From Patescibacteria group bacterium (lineage in GTDB: Bacteria > Patescibacteriota > UBA1384 > JBBRAU01), in assembly GCA_038206475.1 (NCBI GenBank), contig JBBRAU010000001.1, positions 71,235 to 135,234 of the forward strand: a DNA stretch of 64,000 nt, written 5' to 3'. The notes under the pieces were generated by a model. The model did no database searches. It saw only the letters and a program-made list of their open reading frames with translations, and was not told the origin of the DNA. Shown here in pieces: positions 44,800 through 56,673 of this stretch. The stretch's first letter is position 1. Every line of letters starts with the position of its first letter. The position numbers and the translations under genes were made by a program.

Positions 44800-44875
44800 G
44801 CGCCTGTAGCTCAGTGGATAGAGCGCTGCCCTCCGAAGGCAGAGGCCACAGGTTCAAGTCCTGTCAGGCGTACCA
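44800..44875 (+). tRNA. tRNA-Arg, anticodon CCG
   Basis: Manual fold: GCGCCTG acceptor, D-arm GCTC/AGTGGATA/GAGC, anticodon stem CTGCC with loop CTCCGAA, T-arm CACAGG/TTCAAGT/CCTGT, CCA encoded. Confidence 0.85.
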
Positions 44876-44921
44876 ACCTAATTCGTTTGGAAAATAAATT
44901 GCGAACTGGGGCAATAACTTT

Positions 44922-46514
44922 GTGAGTACTCATCACCTAAGCAAAAACATGACCAAAGAGCAGGAGCGCACAGAGTTGCACCGTGCTATTTGGCAGATTG
45001 CGAACGATCTGCGCGGAGCAGTGGATGGCTGGGATTTCAAACAGTATGTACTTGGAACGCTTTTTTATCGATTCATTAGCGAGAACTTGACGAACTACAT
45101 CAATGCCGATGAACGTCGCACTGGCAAACAAAATTTTGATTATACAGCGCTTGCCGACGAAGAAGCCGAGTTTGGTCGAGCCGATACGGTGAAAGAAAAA
45201 GGCTTCTATATCTTGCCAAGCGAGCTTTTTGTAAACGTATGCATAAATGCCCGCAGCAACGCCAACCTCAACGAAACGCTTTCTGTTATTTTTCGTAACA
45301 TTGAAAACTCCGCCAAAGGTGCAAGCAGTGAGGATGACCTTCGGGGCCTTTTTGATGACTTAGACGTGAACTCAAGTCGACTCGGAAACACGGTAGAAAC
45401 GAGAAATCGCAAGCTCGCCAAGTTGTTAGAAGCGATCGGCGAGCTTCGCCTCGGTGATTACGCGGATAATACTATTGATGCTTTTGGTGATGCATATGAG
45501 TTCTTGATGACCATGTACGCCTCGACGGCTGGCAAATCCGGAGGCGAATTTTTTACGCCACAGGAGGTCAGCGAGCTCCTCGCTGAAATTACCACTGTCG
45601 GCAAAAAGGAAGTAAACAAAGTTTACGACCCAGCCTGTGGGTCTGGCTCACTGCTCCTCAAATTCGCGAAGGTGTTGGGGCGAGAGAATGTGCGCCAAGG
45701 TTTCTTCGGTCAGGAAATCAATCTTACCACCTATAATCTCTGCCGTATCAACATGTTTCTGCATGATGTGAACTACAACCATTTTGATATTGCTCACGGT
45801 GATACACTTACCGATCCGAAACATTGGGACGACGAGCCGTTTGATGCCATCGTCTCTAATCCGCCTTATTCCATCCACTGGGAAGGTGATGCGGATCCCT
45901 TACTTATCAATGATCCGCGTTTTTCACCGGCCGGAGTGCTGGCACCAAAGAGCAAGGCTGACCTGGCATTTACTATGCACATGCTTTCGTGGCTTTCGAC
46001 CAGCGGCACAGCGGCCATCGTTGAGTTTCCTGGCGTTCTCTATCGCGGTGGTGCGGAGCAAAAAATCCGTAAGTACTTGATAGAGAATAATTACATCGAA
46101 GTCGTCATTCAACTTCCGCCCGATCTCTTTTTCGGCACCACCATTGCCACCTGCGTTATTGTGCTCAAGAAGAGCAAAAAGGACAACAAAACGCTCTTTA
46201 TTGATGCCTCGGCCGAATTTGTACGCAACGGCAATAAAAACAAACTATCACAAGCAAACCGCGCTAAGATTTTAGACGCGTTTACCGCACGCAATGATGC
46301 CGATTACTTTGCCAAATTAGTCGACAATAAAACGATTGCCGAGAATGAGTACAATATTGCCGTATCAAGCTATGTTGTGGCAGAAGACACCCGCGAGGTG
46401 GTGGATATTGCGGTGCTCAATACTGAGATCGCCCGCATTGTTGTGAGGCAGAATGAGCTCCGTACGGCGATTGATAAAATCGTCGTCGATATTGAGGGAA
46501 CAAAAGAACCATGA
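44922..46514 (+). CDS. hsdM: Type I restriction-modification system methyltransferase subunit
   Basis: HsdM N-terminal domain, SAM-binding DPACGSGSLL, catalytic NPPY (VSNPPYSIHW); 530 aa. Confidence 0.9.
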   Translation: MSTHHLSKNMTKEQERTELHRAIWQIANDLRGAVDGWDFKQYVLGTLFYRFISENLTNYINADERRTGKQNFDYTALADEEAEFGRADTVKEKGFYILPSELFVNVCINARSNANLNETLSVIFRNIENSAKGASSEDDLRGLFDDLDVNSSRLGNTVETRNRKLAKLLEAIGELRLGDYADNTIDAFGDAYEFLMTMYASTAGKSGGEFFTPQEVSELLAEITTVGKKEVNKVYDPACGSGSLLLKFAKVLGRENVRQGFFGQEINLTTYNLCRINMFLHDVNYNHFDIAHGDTLTDPKHWDDEPFDAIVSNPPYSIHWEGDADPLLINDPRFSPAGVLAPKSKADLAFTMHMLSWLSTSGTAAIVEFPGVLYRGGAEQKIRKYLIENNYIEVVIQLPPDLFFGTTIATCVIVLKKSKKDNKTLFIDASAEFVRNGNKNKLSQANRAKILDAFTARNDADYFAKLVDNKTIAENEYNIAVSSYVVAEDTREVVDIAVLNTEIARIVVRQNELRTAIDKIVVDIEGTKEP

Positions 46515-47530
46515 AACAGGACGCTCAGAACAATGACATCATCATTTATGAAGGCGAGAACGGCCAGCCGAAAATTGAGGTGCGTGTTGAGGGTGAAACC
46601 GTATGGCTTACTATTGACCAAATGGCCACGTTATTTAACAAAGGACGCTCAACGGTAAATGAGCATATCATCAACATCTATCACGAAAAAGAGCTAGTCG
46701 AGGCTGATTCTGTGAGAAAAATCGGTAATTCCGATTTTTCTACCAAACCCACAAACTACTATAATCTCGACGTTGTCATTTCTGTTGGTTACCGCGTAAG
46801 TTCTGTCCAGGGTACGCGCTTTCGCCAGTGGGCAACCGCACGCCTGCGAGAGTACATCGTCAAAGGCTTCACCATGGACGATGAGCGTCTCAAGAGTTCA
46901 GGTGGCGGAACGTACTGGAAAGAGCTTTTAGAACGCATTCGCGATATTCGGAGCAGCGAGAAGGCCCTTTATCGTCAGGTGTTGGATTTGTATGCGACAA
47001 GTCTAGACTACAACTCAAAAAGCAAAGAAACAGGAGAGTTCTTTAAAACGGTGCAGAACAAACTTCACTACGCCACGAACCAGCAAACTGCCACCGAGCT
47101 TATCCATGCGCGGGCTGATGCTAACAAAGACTTCATGGGACTCACCACCTTTGCCGGAACTATACCTAAGCGATCAGAGGTTTCCATAGCCAAGAATTAT
47201 CTGACCGAAGACGAGCTCTTTCGCCTGAACCGCTTGGTGTCTGCTTTTTTCGACCTTGCTGAAATCAAAGCGCAAGACCATATGCCGATGCATATGAAAG
47301 ACTGGATGGCGGAGCTCGACAAATTTGCTGGGATGTATGGTAAGGGCGTACTGAAAAATGCGGGTGTCGTGAGACATGACGCTGCCATGAAGAAAGCCGA
47401 CCGGGAGTACCGAAAATATCAGGCCAAAACCCTTTCACCCGTTGAAGAAGCATATTTGGCCACGATCAAGGCTTTGCAGAAAAAGGTGGAGAAAAAAGTG
47501 AAAGAGAGCAAGCCAAAGAGTAAAAAGTAA
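46511..47530 (+). CDS. RhuM-family protein embedded in the Type I R-M operon
   Basis: N-terminus DIIIYEGENGQPKIEVRVEGETVWLTIDQMATLFNKGRSTVNEHI resembles the RhuM N-terminal region. Position between hsdM and hsdS, with ATGA overlap to hsdM. Confidence 0.55.
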   Translation: MKQDAQNNDIIIYEGENGQPKIEVRVEGETVWLTIDQMATLFNKGRSTVNEHIINIYHEKELVEADSVRKIGNSDFSTKPTNYYNLDVVISVGYRVSSVQGTRFRQWATARLREYIVKGFTMDDERLKSSGGGTYWKELLERIRDIRSSEKALYRQVLDLYATSLDYNSKSKETGEFFKTVQNKLHYATNQQTATELIHARADANKDFMGLTTFAGTIPKRSEVSIAKNYLTEDELFRLNRLVSAFFDLAEIKAQDHMPMHMKDWMAELDKFAGMYGKGVLKNAGVVRHDAAMKKADREYRKYQAKTLSPVEEAYLATIKALQKKVEKKVKESKPKSKK

Positions 47531-47532
47531 TT

Positions 47533-48672
47533 ATGGCAAAAAATCAAAGCAAAATTGAGAAGCTGATTGCCGAGTACTGTCCCAACGAGGTGGAGTTTAA
47601 AAAGCTCGGAGAGGTCTGTGAAATTACTGATAATAAAAGGAGACCCGTAGCATCGAGTTTACGTGTAGCAGGCAAAATACCATACTATGGTGCAAACAAC
47701 ATACAAGACTATGTTGAAGGTTTCACACATGAAGGTGATTTTGTATTAATTGCTGAGGATGGATCCGCAAACTTAGAAAATTATTCAATCCAGTTTGCGA
47801 CCGGAAAGTTCTGGGCAAATAACCATGTTCATGTTGTTAGAGGATACGATAAATTAAATAATAGGTTTTTATTTCATTATTTAAGAAGCATGAAGTTTAT
47901 TCCATTCTTAACAGGTGGAACTCGTGCAAAGCTTACCAAAAGCAAGATGCTAGAAATAATAATCCCTATTCCGCCGCTTGCGGTGCAGGAGGAGATTGTC
48001 AACATTCTTAATAGCTTTACAGAGCTAGAAGCAGAGCTAGAAGCAGAGCTAGAAGCTAGAAAGATGCAGTACGAGCATTACCGCTCGGCACTTCTGACAT
48101 TTAACGAGGGGGGGGTACGGAGGCCGAGGCTTGATGAAGTATGCCAATCGATTCTCGCAGGCGGAGATTTGCCAGAAAATTATTCGAAGGGTCAAAATAT
48201 GCCAACCCAAGAACTTCCATTCCCCATATATTCAAACGGTTCCGATGATAAAGCGTTGTATGGCTATTCTGATAGCTACAGTATCGGTAGCGAGGCCGTA
48301 ACTATTTCGGCGCGTGGGACCATCGGCTACCACACGGTACGCAAAGCGAAATTCACACCGATTGTTCGTCTCATTACCCTTATTCCCAACACTGAAATTA
48401 TTTCACCAAGGTTTTTAAGCTACGCTCTCGATGTTACTGAAATTGGCCATAGCGGCGGTAGTATTCCACAGTTGACTGTCCCAAATGTCAAAAAAATTCA
48501 AATCCCTGTTCCTGAAATCGCCGAGCAAGAGCGTATCGTGTCTATTTTGGATAAGTTTAATGCACTCGTGAATGACATTTCCGTTGGCCTGCCGGCAGAG
48601 CTTGCTGCGCGTCGGTCGCAATACGAATATTATCGAGGTAAGCTCCTGACATTTAATGAAATGACAGTATGA
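47533..48672 (+). CDS. hsdS: Type I restriction-modification specificity subunit
   Basis: Two target-recognition domains separated and followed by conserved helical repeats (..QYEHYRSALLTFNEG and ..QYEYYRGKLLTFNE). The central region contains an ELEA x3 repeat. Confidence 0.85.
   Translation: MAKNQSKIEKLIAEYCPNEVEFKKLGEVCEITDNKRRPVASSLRVAGKIPYYGANNIQDYVEGFTHEGDFVLIAEDGSANLENYSIQFATGKFWANNHVHVVRGYDKLNNRFLFHYLRSMKFIPFLTGGTRAKLTKSKMLEIIIPIPPLAVQEEIVNILNSFTELEAELEAELEARKMQYEHYRSALLTFNEGGVRRPRLDEVCQSILAGGDLPENYSKGQNMPTQELPFPIYSNGSDDKALYGYSDSYSIGSEAVTISARGTIGYHTVRKAKFTPIVRLITLIPNTEIISPRFLSYALDVTEIGHSGGSIPQLTVPNVKKIQIPVPEIAEQERIVSILDKFNALVNDISVGLPAELAARRSQYEYYRGKLLTFNEMTV
48023..48058 (+). repeat. 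12-bp tandem repeat GAGCTAGAAGCA x3 (encodes ELEA x3) in the hsdS central spacer region
   Basis: Exact tandem copies seen directly in the sequence, inside the central conserved region between TRD1 and TRD2. Confidence 0.85.
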
Positions 48673-49334
48673 ACCAAATTATTTACATCCTCACTAATGA
48701 GTCAATGCCTGAATATATAAAAATCGGGTTTACTCATGGCGAGGTGAACGAAAGAATTAAGCAACTTGACAGAACGGGCGTGCCACTTCCTTTTGAAATT
48801 TACTACGCAGCTACTGTGGAGAATGCAGAGAATGAGGAGAAATGGCTACACTCTATTTTTGCTGACCGTAGAGCGCGCGATAGTCGTGAATTTTTCAGGA
48901 TGAGTCCGGAACACGCAACTCTTGCACTTAAGCGGGTTGAAATTACCGAGGAAAAAATAGAGAACATCCTAACTAAAGAGCAGGAAAAAGAAGTAGACAA
49001 GGCAAAAGAAAGAAGGGCGCGATTTCAGTTTGCTCAGTATGGAATTCCTGTCGGTTCTAAACTGACATTCACTAGAGACGAAGGTATCGTCGCTGAAGTT
49101 GTGGAGAACGATAAAATAAAAATTGGTGACAGCGTAAGCAGCCTATCCACCTGCGCGATGGAGCTGTTGGGGTATCAGAGACGGCCGCAGGGAACCTTAT
49201 ACTTCAAGTTCAAGGACGAGATATTAGATGACAGGCGAAAGAGAATGGATGAGGTGGAACCAACGCCAAAGGGCGTAGAAGCTGCTGGTGATGAGTGGAT
49301 GTCACAACAGGCAGAAATAGAACAAGGAAAATAA
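48669..49334 (+). CDS. T5orf172/GIY-YIG-like domain protein embedded between hsdS and hsdR
   Basis: N-terminus IIYILTNESMPEYIKIGFTHGEVNERIKQLDRTGVPLPFEIYYA fits the T5orf172 (GIY-YIG-like) pattern; 221 aa; ATGA overlap with hsdS. Confidence 0.5.
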   Translation: MNQIIYILTNESMPEYIKIGFTHGEVNERIKQLDRTGVPLPFEIYYAATVENAENEEKWLHSIFADRRARDSREFFRMSPEHATLALKRVEITEEKIENILTKEQEKEVDKAKERRARFQFAQYGIPVGSKLTFTRDEGIVAEVVENDKIKIGDSVSSLSTCAMELLGYQRRPQGTLYFKFKDEILDDRRKRMDEVEPTPKGVEAAGDEWMSQQAEIEQGK

Positions 49335-49335
49335 T

Positions 49336-52300
49336 ATGTCCACTAACAATAAATACCATCTTGTTTCTGAAAATACGCAAAGCACCGTTGTGGCCGAATT
49401 TGCACCAGACGGCGTTCGTGTGGCGCACTATCAAAGCGAAGCAGAACTAGAAAAAGCGCTTATTCAGCAGCTTGAAACACAGGCATATGAATACGTGGCC
49501 ATTGCTACTGAAGCCGACTTGGTGGCGAACCTGAGAAAACAGCTAGAGAAACTGAACAATTTTACGTTTGGCGATAGCGAATGGGAACATTTCTTTACTG
49601 GCGAACTTGCCAACCCGAATCAGAGTATTGAAGAAAAGACAGCGACTATTCAAGAGGACTACATTAAAAACCTTACGCGCGATGACGGCACAATCAAAAA
49701 TGTGTACTTGTTAAAAAAAGACAACATTCATAATAATAGCTTGCAGGTTACCAATCAGTACGCCACAGAAGACGGTATGCGGGCTAATCGCTACGATGTG
49801 ACAGTGCTTGTGAATGGTCTGCCAATGGTGCACATCGAGCTAAAACGGCGCGGTATAGCCATTCAAGAGGCCTTCAATCAGATTAATCGCTATCAGCGCG
49901 AAAGTTTTTGGGCGGCCAGTGGGCTATTCGAATATGTGCAGTTGTTTATTATTTCCAATGGTACTCACACCAAATACTACAGCAACACCACGCGTAAAGA
50001 ACACATTAAAGATGCAAGCGAAGGCGCGGCGAAACAAGGCAAGCGCTCAAGCAACAGTTTTGAATTTACAAACTGGTGGGCCGACGCCACTAACCGGCCA
50101 ATTTCCGATCTAATGGATTTTGCCCAGACCTTTTTTGCCAAACACACGCTTCTTAATATCCTCACTCGTTACTGCGTATTTACGACCGATCGACAGCTTC
50201 TGGTGATGCGCCCATATCAAATTGTGGCAACCGAACGAATACTGAACCGCATTGAGGTGAGTACAAATTATAAGCAGCTCGGCACCATAGAAGCCGGTGG
50301 GTATGTATGGCACACCACTGGGTCAGGGAAAACTCTGACAAGCTTCAAAACAGCCCTACAGGTGAGCAAACTGGCGTATGTAGACAAAGTGGTGTTTGTG
50401 GTTGACCGCAAAGATTTAGACTACCAAACTATGCGCGAATACGACAAGTTCGAGAAAGGCGCAGCCAACAGCAACACCTCGACGGCGGTATTAAAACGAC
50501 AGTTGGAAAATCCGCAAGCCCGAATCATTATCACAACCATTCAAAAGCTCGATCATTTCGTAAGCCGCAACGCCGGACACCGTATTTTTGACGGTCACGT
50601 CGTACTTATTTTTGACGAATGCCATCGCTCACAGTTTGGTGATATGCACGCCGCAATCACAAAGGCCTTCAAGAATTACCACATTTTCGGTTTTACGGGC
50701 ACGCCAATTTTTGCGGTCAACGCGTCCTCTGGAGGCCGTCCAGATTTCAAAACGACCGAGCAGGCCTTTGGCGATAAATTGCACACGTACACCATTGTAG
50801 ACGCGATTGCCGACAAAAATGTTCTACCGTTTAAGGTGGATTATGTTTCTACGGTTCGTGAAGCCGAGGATATTGAAGATAAAAAAGTAAGCGATATTGA
50901 TCGCGAGGCAGTGCTCGCTTCTCCAGAGCGTCTGGCGAATATTGTCGGTTATATTCGTGAGCATTTTGATCAAAAAACGAAGCGCAATAGCTTCTACAAA
51001 CTGAAAGACCGGCGGTTGGCCGGCTTTAATTCTCTCTTTGCCGTTTCGTCAATTGATGTCGCTAAGAAGTACTATGTTGAGTTCAAGCGTCAGCTCGCCG
51101 ACGCGCCAAGTGATAAGCGTCTCAAAATAGCGACCATATTCAGCTTTGGTGTCAATGACGATGATGCCGACGGTATGCTAGATGAAAACTCAGATGACAC
51201 GAGCGGGCTAGACGCAAGTTCACGGGACTTTTTGGAACATGCTATCGCTGACTATAATGCGATTTTTGGGACTTCGTACGACACGTCGTCCGACAAATTT
51301 TCCAATTATTACAAAGATGTGAGCTTGCGCGTTAAAGGCCGCGAGATTGATATTTTGATCGTCGTCAACATGTTTTTAACTGGCTTTGATGCAACAACGC
51401 TTAACACACTCTGGGTTGATAAAAACTTGCGACTTCACGGCCTATTGCAAGCTTTCTCGCGGACAAACCGTATTCTCAACAGCGTAAAGACTTTTGGCCA
51501 TATCGTGTGCTTCCGCAATTTAGAAAAGGCAACGAATGAATCAATTGCGCTTTTTGGTGATAAAGAAGCCAGAGGCGTTGTATTGCTAAAATCATATGCT
51601 GAATACTACGGGGGTTACGTGCACGGTGATAAGGCGGTGCTTGGCTATGCAAATCTCGTCGCTGAGCTGCTTGAGAAGTATCCTATTGGGCAGGCTATTA
51701 TTGGCGAACAAAGTCAAAAGCATTTTATCAGACTATATGGCGCAATTTTGCGTGTGCGGAACATTTTGACGACATTTGATGAATTTGTGGGCAACGAAAT
51801 TTTGACCGCGCGTGATGTGCAAGACTACCACAGCATGTACATTGACCTCTATAACGAATTTAGCAAAGGCGTGGAAGACGACAAAGAGAACATTATCGAT
51901 GACGTCGTATTTGAGATGGAACTGATCAAACAGATTGAAATAAATATTGACTACATTTTGGGGCTCATCAAACACTATCATGAAGATCATACTCAAAACC
52001 GTGAGCTTTTGGCGGATATCAACAAAGCAATCGACTCAAGTATTGAACTGCGAAACAAAAAGGATCTTATTAATCAATTTATTTTATCGCTCGACATACA
52101 CTCAGTGGTTGATGATGATTGGCAGAAGTTTGTCAACCAGAAAAAGACGGAAGAACTTGAGCAAATTATTGAGACCGAAGGGCTGGATCGCGATGCCACC
52201 TATACGTTTGTGCGAAACGCCTTCCGCGACGGAGGCGTAATGGTGACCGGCACAGACATCTCTCGTGTTCTGCCTCCGGTATCTCGCTTTTTAGCAACCG

Positions 52301-52395
52301 GCGAGCGTTCTGAGAAACGCAATAGCGTGCTCAATAAATTAACGAGTTTCTTTGAGCGATTCTTCGATATCTCCGGCGGTTCATTCACGGACTAG
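49336..52395 (+). CDS. hsdR: Type I restriction endonuclease R subunit
   Basis: N-terminal nuclease domain, DEAD-box helicase motifs (TGSGKTLT, DECHRSQ), 1019 aa. Confidence 0.9.
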   Translation: MSTNNKYHLVSENTQSTVVAEFAPDGVRVAHYQSEAELEKALIQQLETQAYEYVAIATEADLVANLRKQLEKLNNFTFGDSEWEHFFTGELANPNQSIEEKTATIQEDYIKNLTRDDGTIKNVYLLKKDNIHNNSLQVTNQYATEDGMRANRYDVTVLVNGLPMVHIELKRRGIAIQEAFNQINRYQRESFWAASGLFEYVQLFIISNGTHTKYYSNTTRKEHIKDASEGAAKQGKRSSNSFEFTNWWADATNRPISDLMDFAQTFFAKHTLLNILTRYCVFTTDRQLLVMRPYQIVATERILNRIEVSTNYKQLGTIEAGGYVWHTTGSGKTLTSFKTALQVSKLAYVDKVVFVVDRKDLDYQTMREYDKFEKGAANSNTSTAVLKRQLENPQARIIITTIQKLDHFVSRNAGHRIFDGHVVLIFDECHRSQFGDMHAAITKAFKNYHIFGFTGTPIFAVNASSGGRPDFKTTEQAFGDKLHTYTIVDAIADKNVLPFKVDYVSTVREAEDIEDKKVSDIDREAVLASPERLANIVGYIREHFDQKTKRNSFYKLKDRRLAGFNSLFAVSSIDVAKKYYVEFKRQLADAPSDKRLKIATIFSFGVNDDDADGMLDENSDDTSGLDASSRDFLEHAIADYNAIFGTSYDTSSDKFSNYYKDVSLRVKGREIDILIVVNMFLTGFDATTLNTLWVDKNLRLHGLLQAFSRTNRILNSVKTFGHIVCFRNLEKATNESIALFGDKEARGVVLLKSYAEYYGGYVHGDKAVLGYANLVAELLEKYPIGQAIIGEQSQKHFIRLYGAILRVRNILTTFDEFVGNEILTARDVQDYHSMYIDLYNEFSKGVEDDKENIIDDVVFEMELIKQIEINIDYILGLIKHYHEDHTQNRELLADINKAIDSSIELRNKKDLINQFILSLDIHSVVDDDWQKFVNQKKTEELEQIIETEGLDRDATYTFVRNAFRDGGVMVTGTDISRVLPPVSRFLATGERSEKRNSVLNKLTSFFERFFDISGGSFTD

Positions 52396-52505
52396 CCAAA
52401 GTCACCATACGTAAATGGCAAGAGTAGGGTTTGGGCATCTTGGAAAAATAGCTACTCTAAAGCGCGTTTTTTGACACTCTGCTCGCGCCTTGCTTGAGTG
52501 AAGTT

Positions 52506-55451
52506 ATGCCAGACGACCTCGTTCAACAAGTAAAGCAACGCCTTGACATCCTTGACTTGGTCCAAGGCTATGTTCAGTTGAAAAAAACCGGCATTAACTG
52601 GAAGGGCCTCTGCCCGTTCCACCAAGAGAAAACGCCGTCGTTTACCGTCAACCAAGAACGTCAGAGCTGGCACTGTTTTGGCTGCTTCCCGAAGGGTTCT
52701 CATGTAAAAACTCCAAGAGGTTTTTGCGATATTGACCAACTTCGAGCAGGAGACGTTGTTATCTCGGGGAAAGGGCAGGAAAAGTCCGTACTCACGACGC
52801 ATCGTCATATGTATAAGGGCGAGCTCGTCCGTATTTCTTTATGCAAGCTTGGTGGCGAAGTGGCGCTAACCGGGGATCATAAAGTATTCGCTTTACGCGG
52901 AGCGCCTTACACCAAAATCTATAAAAACTTCAGCCGACGCTTGAAGCGCTACCAACAACTGCCAGCGGACCAATATCGACAAAAGCTCGACCGCTACTTC
53001 CCTGTCGAAAAAGTGGAGGCACACGAGTTAACGATTGGCGATTTGTTATTATATCCAATCTCCTACAGGACCGAACCAATCTCTTCGCTAGTCCCTTGTG
53101 ACCATTTAACAAAAACATTCCGTCTTGGGCCGAAACCGAGTGATTTACCAAAAGAGCTCCCGATTACTGACAGTCTACTGAAATTACTCGGATACTATAT
53201 TGCTGAGGGTAGTAACCATCGTGCCTACATTCGATTTAGCCTCGGTGGCCATGAGCTGAAACTCGCTAAAGAGATTCAAGTCTTGCTCAAAGAAGTGTTT
53301 GGCCTGGTCTCTAGCATCCACGTTCGCCAAGGAGGCAAGCCCGGGATAGAGGTTACGTGCTGTCACGCTGCGCTAGCCGATATTTTTGGCAACTTGTGTG
53401 GCAAAGGGGCGGCCAATAAACACATCCCTTTTGAGCTTCGGCACTTGCCAGTAGGCCAACAGCAGGTGCTGCTTAACGCCATCTGGACGGGTGACGGTAC
53501 TGCTCGTGCTAAACATCGGTCACTTAAAATTGAACGCTCAATCGGCAGTATTTCGCAGACACTGGCCGAGCAAATAGTTGATATCTTGCTGCGCAGGCAT
53601 ATCTTTCCCTCGCTTCAGGTTATCCAAGCACATACGAGCGGCGATGGCGTCAAACACAGAATGGCCTACACTGTTGTTTGGGGAGAGGCTGGTGAGGATA
53701 AATACAATAGTGTCTACCAAGCGGCGGGCGGTACTCATTATTGGGTGTTGCCAGTTGTCCATATAGCAAAAGAACCCTTCTGCGACGAGGTGTTCAACCT
53801 GACGATTGAGGATGACCATTCGTATGTCGCGCGCAATTTCGCGGTTGCCAACTGCGGCGAGGGCGGGGACATTTTTACCTTTGTCGAAAAGATTGAACAC
53901 GTTGAATTTAAAGAGGCGCTGGAGCTGCTGGCTGGCCGGGTTGGGCTGGAGGTCAAACCGCAAACGCCGGTTGAGCGTCAGCAGAAGGGCGAAAAGGCGA
54001 AACTTGAGGAGCTATACCAGCTGGCCAGCCGCTTCTACCACGCGTTGCTCATTAACCATCCGCTTGGCCAAGCTGCCCGCGATTACCTCGCCAAGCGGGG
54101 TGTTTCAGCTGAGTCGGTCAAAGCGTGGCAATTGGGTGTGGCGCCCGACCACTGGGACGCCCTGCTCTCGGCACTGCAAAAGCGCGGTTTCACGGCCGAT
54201 GAGTTGGTCAAGGCCGGATTGGCCGTCAAAAATGAGCGCGGCAACATTTATGACCGCTTTCGGAACCGCTTGTTGTTCCCGATTATCACCGCCAGCGGCC
54301 AACCGGTCGCTTTCTCTGGCCGGGTGATAACGGCTGATCAAGAACCCAAATACTTAAACTCGCCTGAGAGCCTGCTCTATCGCAAGAGCAGTGTTGTGAT
54401 GGGACTGAATTTAGCCAAAGAGGCAATTCGGAAGGCCGGCCAAGTAATGGTGGTCGAAGGCAATTTAGATGTCCTTATTTGCCAGCAGTTTGGCCTGACC
54501 AACACCGTCGCTACCGGCGGCACGGCGCTAACGTCTGACCACCTGCGCTTACTGGCTCGCTACGCCCCAGTCGTTATTTTTGCCTTTGATGCGGACGCCG
54601 CCGGCCAGAAAGCGGCTGAAAAGGCGGCGCTGTTGGCGCTAGAGGTGGGCCTGGAGCCACGCTTCATTGCCTTGCCGGCCGGAGATGACCCAGACTCGCT
54701 GCTACGCCGGGATGAAGCCGCCTTCCGCCAGGCTATGGCTGCCGCTCTGCCGGCCGTGCCGTACTTTTTAGAACGGGCGCTCAATGAGTATGGCCAGGCT
54801 ACCGCACAAGCCAAAAAGCAGGTGGCGGCAGCGGTGGTGCCGTTGCTCCGCCGCATACACGATCCAGTCGAGCAGGCGGATTCATTGCAGCAGGTGGCCG
54901 ACCGACTGCATGTGCCACGAGAGGCCATAGAGAGTGCTGTTTCAGCTGAGACGAAGGCAAAAACGACCGTTCCGGTGGTAGCGGCGACCGCCCGCCGCGG
55001 TCCGCTCGAGCCAAGCCAGCGCTTGTTTGGCCTGCTGCTGCTCTCGGAACGGCCACTGCCACCGCTTGACCCACTGCTACAGGATAGTCCAGACAAAACG
55101 CTGCAGTTTTTGCAGGCTCGGCAGGCAGAGGGGATTGGCGACAAGATGAGTTGGGCGACGTGGCAGGCCAAGCAACCGCAGCCAATCCAGGCGCGTTTGG
55201 CCTCACTGCTGACCGTGGCGGCCGAAGCCTACGGTGAGTTGCCACAGGAGCAGTTCGAGGCTGAAATTACGCTGCTTTTGGCGGCGCTGCGTTCCCGGGT
55301 TCTTGAGCACCAGCAATCGGACCGCCAGGCCGAAATTCGGCTGGCCGAGCAGGCGGGCGACAAGGCGCGCGTACGCTCACTGCTGCAAGAGATGATGGAT
55401 GATTTGGTCATGCCCCCACCGGCCAGCGCGGATCCTCGTCAAAAAACATAA
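52506..55451 (+). CDS. dnaG: DNA primase DnaG interrupted by an intein
   Basis: Zinc ribbon CPFHQEKTPSF..WHCFG. The extein resumes CGEGGDIFTFV. TOPRIM (VVEGNLDVL) and a C-terminal helicase-binding domain are present. Start taken at ATG 52506 (MPDDLVQQVK); the ORF-track 52494 is TTG. Confidence 0.85.
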   Translation: MPDDLVQQVKQRLDILDLVQGYVQLKKTGINWKGLCPFHQEKTPSFTVNQERQSWHCFGCFPKGSHVKTPRGFCDIDQLRAGDVVISGKGQEKSVLTTHRHMYKGELVRISLCKLGGEVALTGDHKVFALRGAPYTKIYKNFSRRLKRYQQLPADQYRQKLDRYFPVEKVEAHELTIGDLLLYPISYRTEPISSLVPCDHLTKTFRLGPKPSDLPKELPITDSLLKLLGYYIAEGSNHRAYIRFSLGGHELKLAKEIQVLLKEVFGLVSSIHVRQGGKPGIEVTCCHAALADIFGNLCGKGAANKHIPFELRHLPVGQQQVLLNAIWTGDGTARAKHRSLKIERSIGSISQTLAEQIVDILLRRHIFPSLQVIQAHTSGDGVKHRMAYTVVWGEAGEDKYNSVYQAAGGTHYWVLPVVHIAKEPFCDEVFNLTIEDDHSYVARNFAVANCGEGGDIFTFVEKIEHVEFKEALELLAGRVGLEVKPQTPVERQQKGEKAKLEELYQLASRFYHALLINHPLGQAARDYLAKRGVSAESVKAWQLGVAPDHWDALLSALQKRGFTADELVKAGLAVKNERGNIYDRFRNRLLFPIITASGQPVAFSGRVITADQEPKYLNSPESLLYRKSSVVMGLNLAKEAIRKAGQVMVVEGNLDVLICQQFGLTNTVATGGTALTSDHLRLLARYAPVVIFAFDADAAGQKAAEKAALLALEVGLEPRFIALPAGDDPDSLLRRDEAAFRQAMAAALPAVPYFLERALNEYGQATAQAKKQVAAAVVPLLRRIHDPVEQADSLQQVADRLHVPREAIESAVSAETKAKTTVPVVAATARRGPLEPSQRLFGLLLLSERPLPPLDPLLQDSPDKTLQFLQARQAEGIGDKMSWATWQAKQPQPIQARLASLLTVAAEAYGELPQEQFEAEITLLLAALRSRVLEHQQSDRQAEIRLAEQAGDKARVRSLLQEMMDDLVMPPPASADPRQKT
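52683..53852 (+). mobile_element. Intein (390 aa) with LAGLIDADG homing endonuclease inserted in the DnaG zinc-binding motif
   Basis: Begins with Cys right after HCFG (CFPKGSHVKT..) and has a block-B-like TGDH. Two LAGLIDADG-like motifs are LLGYYIAEGS and LLNAIWTGDG. It ends ..DDHSYVARNFAVAN followed by extein Cys. Removing it restores HCFGCGEGGD. Confidence 0.7.
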
Positions 55452-55521
55452 TTTGTGGTAGTATGAAATTGAATAGCAATAGGCGCTCAACAACTAGGCG
55501 CCGGCACCTCTGTGTCGGCAA

Positions 55522-56673
55522 TTGCGAGGCTACGTGACCAAAAAAGTCATTCGTATACAAAAAGAGGATCGGCCAGACTTTCCGGATGGGGTTTTAGAGT
55601 TAGTGGACAAAGGCCGTGGCAGCGGTTTTGTGACGCTGCAGGAGTTGCAGCAAGCCTGGCCTGAGCCAGAATCTGACCTAAATCTTTTGGACGATATTTT
55701 CAACTATCTGTTTGAAAAAGGGGTTGAGGTGCGCGACACGGCGGTTGATGAAGTGGGGTTATTGAGAAGCCAGGCAAAGAATGAAAATATCTCGCGCCTG
55801 TCATTGAAAGATCAGCTCAAAGAGCAAAGTGACGATTTGCGCGATATCTCGGACGACTCAGTGCGTATGTACTTGCGTGAAATCGGCCGCATTCCGCTTC
55901 TTACCGCCGAGGATGAAATTCGATTGGCCAAGCGTATTGCCAAAGGCGACAAAGTGGCCAAGCGGAAGCTGGCCGAAGCTAATTTGCGCTTGGTTGTCTC
56001 CATCGCTAAAAAATACATTGGCCGCGGGTTGGGCCTCTTGGACTTGGTGCAAGAGGGCAACACCGGCCTGCTGCGCGCGGTTGAGAAGTTTGACTACCGA
56101 AAGGGCTACAAATTCTCTACCTATGCCACCTGGTGGGTGCGCCAGGCCATCACGCGGGCTATTGCCGACCAAGCCCGCACCATTCGCATTCCGGTACACA
56201 TGATTGAAACGATCAACAAGCTCATTCGCACCCAGCGTCAGCTGGTGCAAGACCTTGGCCGCGAGCCGCTGCCCGAGGAGATTGCCGCCGAGATGGGCGT
56301 GGATGTTGACAAGGTAGAGCACATCTTAAAAATCTCGCAAGAGACGGTTTCGCTGGAGGCGCCGGTGGGTGAGGAGGAGGACTCCAAGCTGGCTGACTTT
56401 ATTCAAGATACCGAGAGTCTGTCGCCTGAGGAGTCGGCCATCTATCAGCTGCTCAAGGACCATGTTGCCGAGTCGCTGCAGAACCTGTCACCGCGTGAGC
56501 AAAAAATTCTGCGTATGCGCTTTGGCCTGGACGACGGCAAAAGCCACACACTTGAGGAAGTTGGCCAAGAGTTTGGCGTCACGCGTGAGCGCATTCGCCA
56601 AATTGAAGCCAAGGCGCTGCAGAAGTTGAAAAAGCACGAAACGGCCAAAAACCTCAAAGACTACCTGGACTAA
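55522..56673 (+). CDS. rpoD: RNA polymerase primary sigma factor (sigma-70)
   Basis: Regions 2-4 conserved ([54 protein letters not shown]). TTG or GTG start is uncertain. Confidence 0.9.

Follow-up and report, generated by a model that had tools for sequence, protein, structure and literature searches.

The hsdS gene of the restriction-modification (R-M) operon studied here contains a 12-bp repeat in tandem, and the question was raised whether this repeat serves as a switch of the enzyme or belongs to its normal architecture. The analysis covered a contiguous stretch of 64 kb, referred to below as the window. A previous sequence-only reading of this DNA had noticed three ELEA units in the central spacer of HsdS, and had proposed them as a candidate switch of specificity or phase variation.

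Repeat tract in hsdS

Tandem Repeats Finder (TRF) detected one perfect array in the gene:

48020-48056, plus strand: exact 37-bp tract of period 12, with the ELEA x3 codons at 48022-48057 (TRF 100% matches, score 74; chance expectation 6e-11)

The tract comprises 3.1 copies. In the reading frame of the ORF 47533-48672, the peptide ELEAELEAELEA forms residues 164-175 of HsdS and is encoded by GAG CTA GAA GCA in the first two units and by GAG CTA GAA GCT in the third. The repeat itself was recovered as described earlier, but the coordinates given for it then (48023-48058) were one base late. Its description as an exact array of three units applies in the register CAGAGCTAGAAG x3 plus C; in frame, the third unit is GAGCTAGAAGCT, with T instead of A as its last base, which is a synonymous difference. 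The flanks of the tract (upstream ...GTCAACATTCTTAATAGCTTTACA, downstream AGAAAGATGCAGTACGAGCATTACCG) are specific for this allele.

Within the whole 64-kb window, this was the sole tandem repeat with a TRF score of at least 50 and the sole exact period-12 tract with at least 12 matched bases. The expected number of such period-12 tracts in 64 kb of random sequence with the same composition was about 6e-11. Given the peptide ELEAELEAELEA and the gene's own codon usage, the observed codon identity had a probability of about 3e-5, and leucine was encoded by CTA in all three repeat codons as against 1 of 31 leucine codons elsewhere in hsdS. Chance origin of the tract is excluded. A period-7 repeat reported by TRF at 48023-48061 (77% matches) was rejected as a separate element and represents a sub-periodicity of the same tract.

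Operon structure and assignment to type IC

The tract-bearing gene lies in an operon of the order hsdM-rhuM-hsdS-T5orf172-hsdR:

44922-46514, plus strand: hsdM, predicted type IC methyltransferase subunit (Pfam N6_Mtase, 2e-113, and HsdM_N; GTG start as in the ORF list)
46511-47530, plus strand: rhuM-family gene between hsdM and hsdS (Pfam Virulence_RhuM, 9e-101; PADLOC PDC-S05, 2.5e-141)
47533-48672, plus strand: hsdS, intact, 379 amino acids, TRD1-D1-TRD2-D2 (Pfam Methylase_S in two stretches, 6e-54; PADLOC Specificity_I, 6e-96)
48669-49334, plus strand: T5orf172/MUG113-domain gene between hsdS and hsdR (Pfam T5orf172, 3.8e-15, and MUG113, 6e-14; PADLOC PDC-S57, 1.7e-62)
49336-52395, plus strand: hsdR, predicted type IC restriction/translocase subunit (Pfam EcoR124_C, 2.8e-64, T1R_D3-like, SWI2_SNF2 and HSDR_N)

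HsdM matched the PDB chain of EcoR124 HsdM (7bst_D) over residues 9-527 with E=1.5e-188 but the M subunit of EcoKI with only 1.8e-13; it is near M.EcoR124I and remote from the M subunits of types IA and IB. HsdR matched EcoR124I HsdR (2w00/4bec) with E=1.6e-254, including the family-specific C-terminal domain EcoR124_C. The match of HsdS to EcoR124 HsdS (chain 7bst_A) had E=1e-28. Its domains follow the order TRD1-D1-TRD2-D2, and D1 and D2 are alike, both ending in R[KR]xQYE[HY]YR...LLTF, and similar to those of EcoR124 HsdS. The ELEA x3 stretch at residues 164-175 supplies a tetra-amino-acid repeat; tandem repeats of this kind (TAEL, LEAT, SEAL, TSEL) are characteristic of type IC HsdS (PMC10030836). 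Because HsdM and HsdR are close homologues of the EcoR124I subunits, the operon is assigned by homology to the type IC R-M systems of the EcoR124I family, and the intact ORFs suggest that the system would be active. Classically, such a family is defined by complementation between subunits or by cross-reacting antibodies.

Likeness to EcoR124I/II, encoded by the E. coli plasmid R124, extends to the family, the position of the repeat helix and the unit of 12 bp or four amino acids; unlike EcoR124, the window operon has two embedded accessory genes, rhuM and T5orf172. The rhuM gene overlaps hsdM by 4 nt, and both accessory genes are joined to their operon neighbours by 4-nt overlaps or 1-2-nt gaps. 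PDC-S05 (rhuM) and PDC-S57 (T5orf172) are candidate defence families of PADLOC. In the loci of the closest relatives, L002 and L004, a DUF6119 gene occupies the slot between hsdM and hsdS, and no gene is present between hsdS and hsdR. The positions of rhuM, T5orf172 and DUF6119 suggest slots with interchangeable cargo and recall the EcoprrI locus, whose operon has the anticodon nuclease gene prrC embedded in it.

The GC content of the R-M operon (44922-52395) was 0.43-0.48 as against 0.529 for the whole window, as would fit an island that was acquired by horizontal transfer and inserted between dnaG and a gene for a DUF2207 membrane protein. The primase gene dnaG follows directly downstream of hsdR (52494-55451, plus strand) and is also present on the Logan contig L001. 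DnaG gave Pfam matches to Zn_ribbon_DnaG (two stretches), Hint_2 (64-107), LAGLIDADG_3 (230-298) and Intein_splicing (95-451), and an intein with a LAGLIDADG homing-endonuclease domain appears to be inserted in its zinc-ribbon region.

Domains of HsdS and reassortment of TRDs

HsdS was divided as follows:

47578-47952, plus strand: TRD1, about residues 16-140, AT-rich (GC 0.368 and GC3 0.338 for residues 1-145; at least 50% identity in 88 of 120 homologues)
47968-48108, plus strand: D1, central conserved helix, about residues 146-192 (invariant columns P145-L187 in alignment A1; ungapped to EcoR124 D1)
48109-48537, plus strand: TRD2, about residues 193-335 (GC 0.466; at least 50% identity in 36 of 120 homologues)
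48538-48669, plus strand: D2, C-terminal conserved helix, residues 336-379, presumed coiled-coil partner of D1 (ungapped to EcoR124 D2; invariant columns in A1)

The sequence-only reading had pointed to the AT-richness of TRD1 relative to TRD2 and had taken it as a sign of TRD shuffling. Both points were borne out. The N-terminus with TRD1 (GC 0.368, GC3 0.338) lies about 10 points of GC below TRD2 (GC 0.466, GC3 0.434); the values for the other operon genes were 0.44-0.48, with 0.476 for hsdM and 0.452 for hsdR. Homologues were taken as the 120 best in the protein collection. At a threshold of at least 50% identity, 73 of them shared only TRD1 with the window protein, 21 only TRD2, and 15 both, so that the two domains are shared independently. 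The protein P0003, for instance, was 88% identical in TRD1 and 25% in TRD2. D1 is the junction at which the TRDs are reassorted. TRD shuffling at the window hsdS is supported by these comparisons and would be normal for a type I system.

TRD1 of the window is unrelated to TRD1 of EcoR124, and the alignment to the PDB chain begins no earlier than residue 134. It shares about 70% identity with the N-terminal TRD in a group of E. coli HsdS proteins of 405 amino acids (P0004, P0007-P0009), the D2 segments of which are identical to EcoR124 D2 over the stretch compared. If any of these four proteins has a known target, the 5' half-site of the window enzyme could be guessed.

Register of D1 and predicted spacer length

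The window protein aligned to 7bst_A without gaps from where TRD1 ends through D1, with EAEL-EAEL over TAEL-TAEL, and the ELEA tract is located exactly at the site of the EcoR124 TAEL repeat. The earlier placement of the repeat in the central conserved region is confirmed by this alignment, in a type IC system. D1 of the window reads ...ILNSFT-ELEAELEAELEA-RKMQYEHYR. The sequence of 7bst_A contains two complete TAEL units, though it was labelled 'EcoR124II specificity protein' by its depositors, and the overall lengths of D1 and D2 in the window are those of this two-TAEL chain, as in EcoR124I. Where EcoR124 has about two units of TAEL, the window has 3.1 units of ELEA/EAEL; the periodic DNA extends into both diverged flanks, hence 3.1 units at two-TAEL length.

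The relation between unit number and spacer is documented for several enzymes. Two TAEL units are found in EcoR124I (GAA N6 RTCG) and three in EcoR124II (N7), the change occurring via unequal crossing-over, and one unit shifts the TRDs apart by about 0.34 nm and turns them through 36 degrees (PMC3874165). In NgoAV, the number of LEAT units varies from 0 to 3 among strains of Neisseria gonorrhoeae, and PacBio methylomes gave GAC N6 TGC where a single unit was present and GAC N7 TGC where there were two (PMC6789123). Two and three repeats lead to spacers of 6 and 7 bp, respectively (PMC10030836). The previous statement that gain or loss of a four-residue unit alters the non-specific spacer, as between EcoR124I and EcoR124II, agrees with these reports, in which the spacer gains or loses 1 bp per unit (PMC3874165, PMC6789123, PMC10030836).

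Since D1 of the window has the length of the two-TAEL form, "ELEA x3" corresponds to the N6 state. Its equation with the three-repeat state of EcoR124II was rejected, the alignment being ungapped at two-TAEL length, which is the commoner of the two main length classes. The window enzyme is predicted to recognize an EcoR124I-like bipartite site with a gap of about N6 and methylated adenines 7 bp apart; the prediction is drawn from homology in helix length, and the geometry of the TRDs would also shape the gap.

Other type IC enzymes provide close parallels. NgoAV carries a nearly identical tetrapeptide in central HsdS (LEAT versus LEAE in the window). It also bears a poly-G tract whose frameshifts truncate HsdS, whereas the window hsdS ORF is intact with no homopolymer or frameshift tract evident. 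EcoDXXI and EcoprrI follow the same principle of the D1 repeat but have three TAEL units, an N7 spacer and a D1 of the 16-residue class (PMC3874165); D1 of the window is one unit shorter, and the gene embedded beside hsdR encodes a T5orf172 domain and not PrrC.

Taken with the homology to EcoR124I, the tract is very probably the tetra-amino-acid tandem repeat typical of D1 in type IC HsdS, which sets the spacer length; this role is established for the family and is extended to the window protein by homology. D1 would form an antiparallel coiled coil with the C-terminal helix D2 that keeps the two TRDs apart, and the length of the D1 helix would determine the count of unspecified base pairs between the half-sites. 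Because the three units are identical in their DNA, 12 bp can be gained or lost in frame, presumably by replication slippage or unequal crossing-over. The resulting enzyme would differ only in its gap, lengthened or shortened by 1 bp, and such changes would take place between strains or over evolutionary time and not as high-frequency on/off switching. The role in spacer length is textbook knowledge, its principle having been known since the late 1980s, and the window tract is an ordinary example, a hallmark of the family and not an oddity.

Variation at this locus

Public collections were searched for the window alleles. Exact-product look-ups gave no match for HsdS and the T5orf172 protein, and one short Logan contig each for HsdR and RhuM, both from SRR19962014. 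The best HsdS relative was P0001 with 78% identity. No variant of the window's hsdS allele was found in the public collections searched. The proposed phase-variation switch was not supported: besides the lack of such a variant there, the tract has only three units, and a change by whole units (12 bp, inside the ORF) keeps the frame, so that expression is not switched on and off. With 3.1 copies of a 12-bp unit, the tract is also not a long tract of short units. It is an in-frame rheostat of specificity and not an on/off phase switch.

Two contigs of SRR19962014 were 100% identical to parts of the window, L005 to 44826-48049 and L001 to 49142-56600. The former ends inside the tract and the latter starts inside the T5orf172 gene; nothing identical to 48050-49141 was found in public contigs. 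No repeat in the window accounts for the other three contig ends (44826, 49142 and 56600). Assembly across the tract was simulated with de Bruijn graphs of k=31, which we take to be the value used for Logan contigs. A three-unit tract alone caused no break, and four or more units, whether pure or in admixture, ended the left contig exactly at 48049. A two-unit admixture was rejected as the cause of the L005 end, the simulated break being at 48044, and so was a point variant at 48019, with which the contig would break first at 48018.

Versions with three and with four or more units might therefore coexist in the sampled population, so that a clonal population would methylate and restrict two sets of targets, a diversification of specificity resembling phase variation. 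The L005 end is that simulated for four or more units, the odds for a random contig end at exactly 48049 are about 1 in 2,700, and SRR19962014 yielded no complete hsdS of this allele. However, the diagnostic 31-mer (G plus the 30-mer 48020-48049) occurred in 111 metagenome contigs with unrelated hsdS genes, and a second organism could cause the same branch of the graph; a scan of metagenomes with this 31-mer for a four-unit version of the window allele returned only these unrelated genes. Neither of the right-hand contig products predicted by two graph models (start at 48028 or 48022) was on record, and a protein search with the C-terminal 216 residues of HsdS gave no identical fragment (best 84%). 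The change would moreover be in frame, with no on/off phase, and slippage should be much rarer in three 12-bp units than in the classical contingency tracts of simple sequence, which also counts against a switch. The L005 end is suggestive only, of a longer allele on the same flanks or, equally simply, of a second organism in the sample, and switching within the population is considered unlikely.

Census of D1 repeats in the family

The census comprised 64 D1 regions, with loci taken from a single genome of each species and from close relatives, spanning Patescibacteria, Clostridia, Bacteroidota, Cyanobacteria, Actinomycetota and others. D1 length was measured as the number of residues separating the FT anchor from the RK anchor. 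Two rows of length '16' in this census were discounted, representing D2 of three-TRD proteins, as were the values '5' and '19' in the set of 120 proteins, which had been mis-anchored by the regular expression. D1 had 12 residues in 37 cases, 16 in 27 genuine cases (about 40% of the census) and 8 in one, with no intermediate lengths; in the protein set the lengths were again 8, 12 or 16, with a mode of 12. Variation in repeat number among relatives, which had been named as a check on the proposed switch, was found at the level of the family, where tracts of the window's codon version have 2-10 units, while the closest relatives (P0001, P0003, L006, L037, L041) all have three.

The unit varies by lineage (ELTA/TAEL, ELEA, ELQA, ELKA, ELSA, ELGK), and the DNA tract was near-exact in most census genes, its length being 37-38 bp where D1 has 12 residues and about 50 bp where it has 16. 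The same codons were used across the units of one gene but different ones between genes (GAG CTG GAA GCA in L006, GAA CTC GAA GCT in L043, GAA TTA GAA GCA in L027). Of the codon pairs for the same amino acid, 12% differed when both came from one gene and 53% when they came from different genes; inside the repeat 21% of pairs differed, as against 61% expected from usage outside the repeat in the same gene. Arrays homogeneous within genes and divergent between them must therefore have been homogenized, which implies recurrent gain and loss of units on evolutionary time scales.

Several alleles differ by single units. P0058 (574 amino acids) and P0083 (570 amino acids) are identical in 570 of 570 aligned residues, one AELQ unit being the sole difference, and P0095 differs from P0108 by one ELEK indel and 4 substitutions. 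Two units were counted in P0082-84, three in P0040 and P0058-60, and four in P0054, P0071 and P0078. These ten proteins are 'extended' HsdS of about 570 amino acids with three TRDs. Two in-frame repeats vary independently in this group, the D1 unit (2, 3 or 4) and (ER)n after the second TRD (0-3 extra ER), and the sequences are otherwise identical or nearly so.

In metagenomes, the codon version of the window, flanked by LNSFT...RKKQYEHYR, was found with 4 units in many contigs, with 5 in 6 tracts, with 6 in 2, and with about 10; L051 has a tract with 2 units. L180 and L181 share the 18 nt directly upstream of the window tract (ATTCTTAATAGCTTTACA), yet have four units. An intact HsdS ORF of 459 amino acids with LNSFT-ELEA x10-RKKQYEHYR is present in L086 (3900-4010), and L107 (13828-13938) has about 10 copies of the ELEA codon unit in a gene that runs off the contig end. 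A D1 of about 10 units lies far outside the 8/12/16 classes and is either a real expanded allele or an assembly artefact.

These data also bear on the possibility that the tract is a static structural element, kept by selection on the peptide with a copy number effectively fixed in the lineage and no ongoing turnover. The identity of its units in DNA would then stem from a past duplication, or from D1 having been conserved as the place where TRDs are exchanged by recombination. No D1 length is commoner in the family than 12 residues, which all closest relatives have; D1 DNA is conserved across phyla (the tract 30-mer is shared by the window, L037 and L041), and D1 is the junction for TRD reassortment. 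Homogeneity within genes together with divergence between genes is, however, hard to obtain without repeated turnover of units, near-identical alleles one unit apart exist, and the same tract was seen with 2 (L051), 3, 4, 5, 6 and 10 units; a static element is thus regarded as quite improbable. An assembly artefact, in which a longer true tract was collapsed or a shorter one expanded, is very improbable: short-k assembly with identical flanks (L005) does break at the tract, but 37 bp without a repeated 31-mer is far below read length and trivially assembled, the ORF is intact, and the D1 length falls in the modal class.

Implications for type I specificity

With the tract read as the spacer-setting repeat of a type IC HsdS, one unit more or fewer would convert the predicted N6-type gap to N7 or N5. 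Phase-variable type I hsdS and hsdM genes with simple sequence repeats (SSR) resemble the window in having a repeat tract, in hsdS, that possibly alters methyltransferase specificity. In those loci, units of 1-5 bp are present in many copies and turn the reading frame on and off, whereas the window has three 12-bp copies that always remain in frame. The TAEL tract is referred to by Atack et al. 2019 (PMC7383803), who flag in-frame tracts beside this coiled coil as an open question and leave them outside their survey of phase variation.

A more far-reaching version appears doubtful, with some chance of being correct: D1 of the window would be length-polymorphic in the SRR19962014 population (three versus four or more units on the same flanks), and type IC D1 arrays would in general be continuously homogenized, expanded and contracted as a widespread in-frame variation of specificity across phyla, the codon version of the window having been seen with 2 to 10 units. 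If true, a form of in-frame specificity phase variation has been explicitly left unexamined by systematic SSR surveys. The census suggests that D1 arrays in many phyla are seemingly kept identical in DNA by ongoing turnover, with up to 10 units, and this turnover bears on the speed at which type I specificities may diversify without exchange of TRDs.
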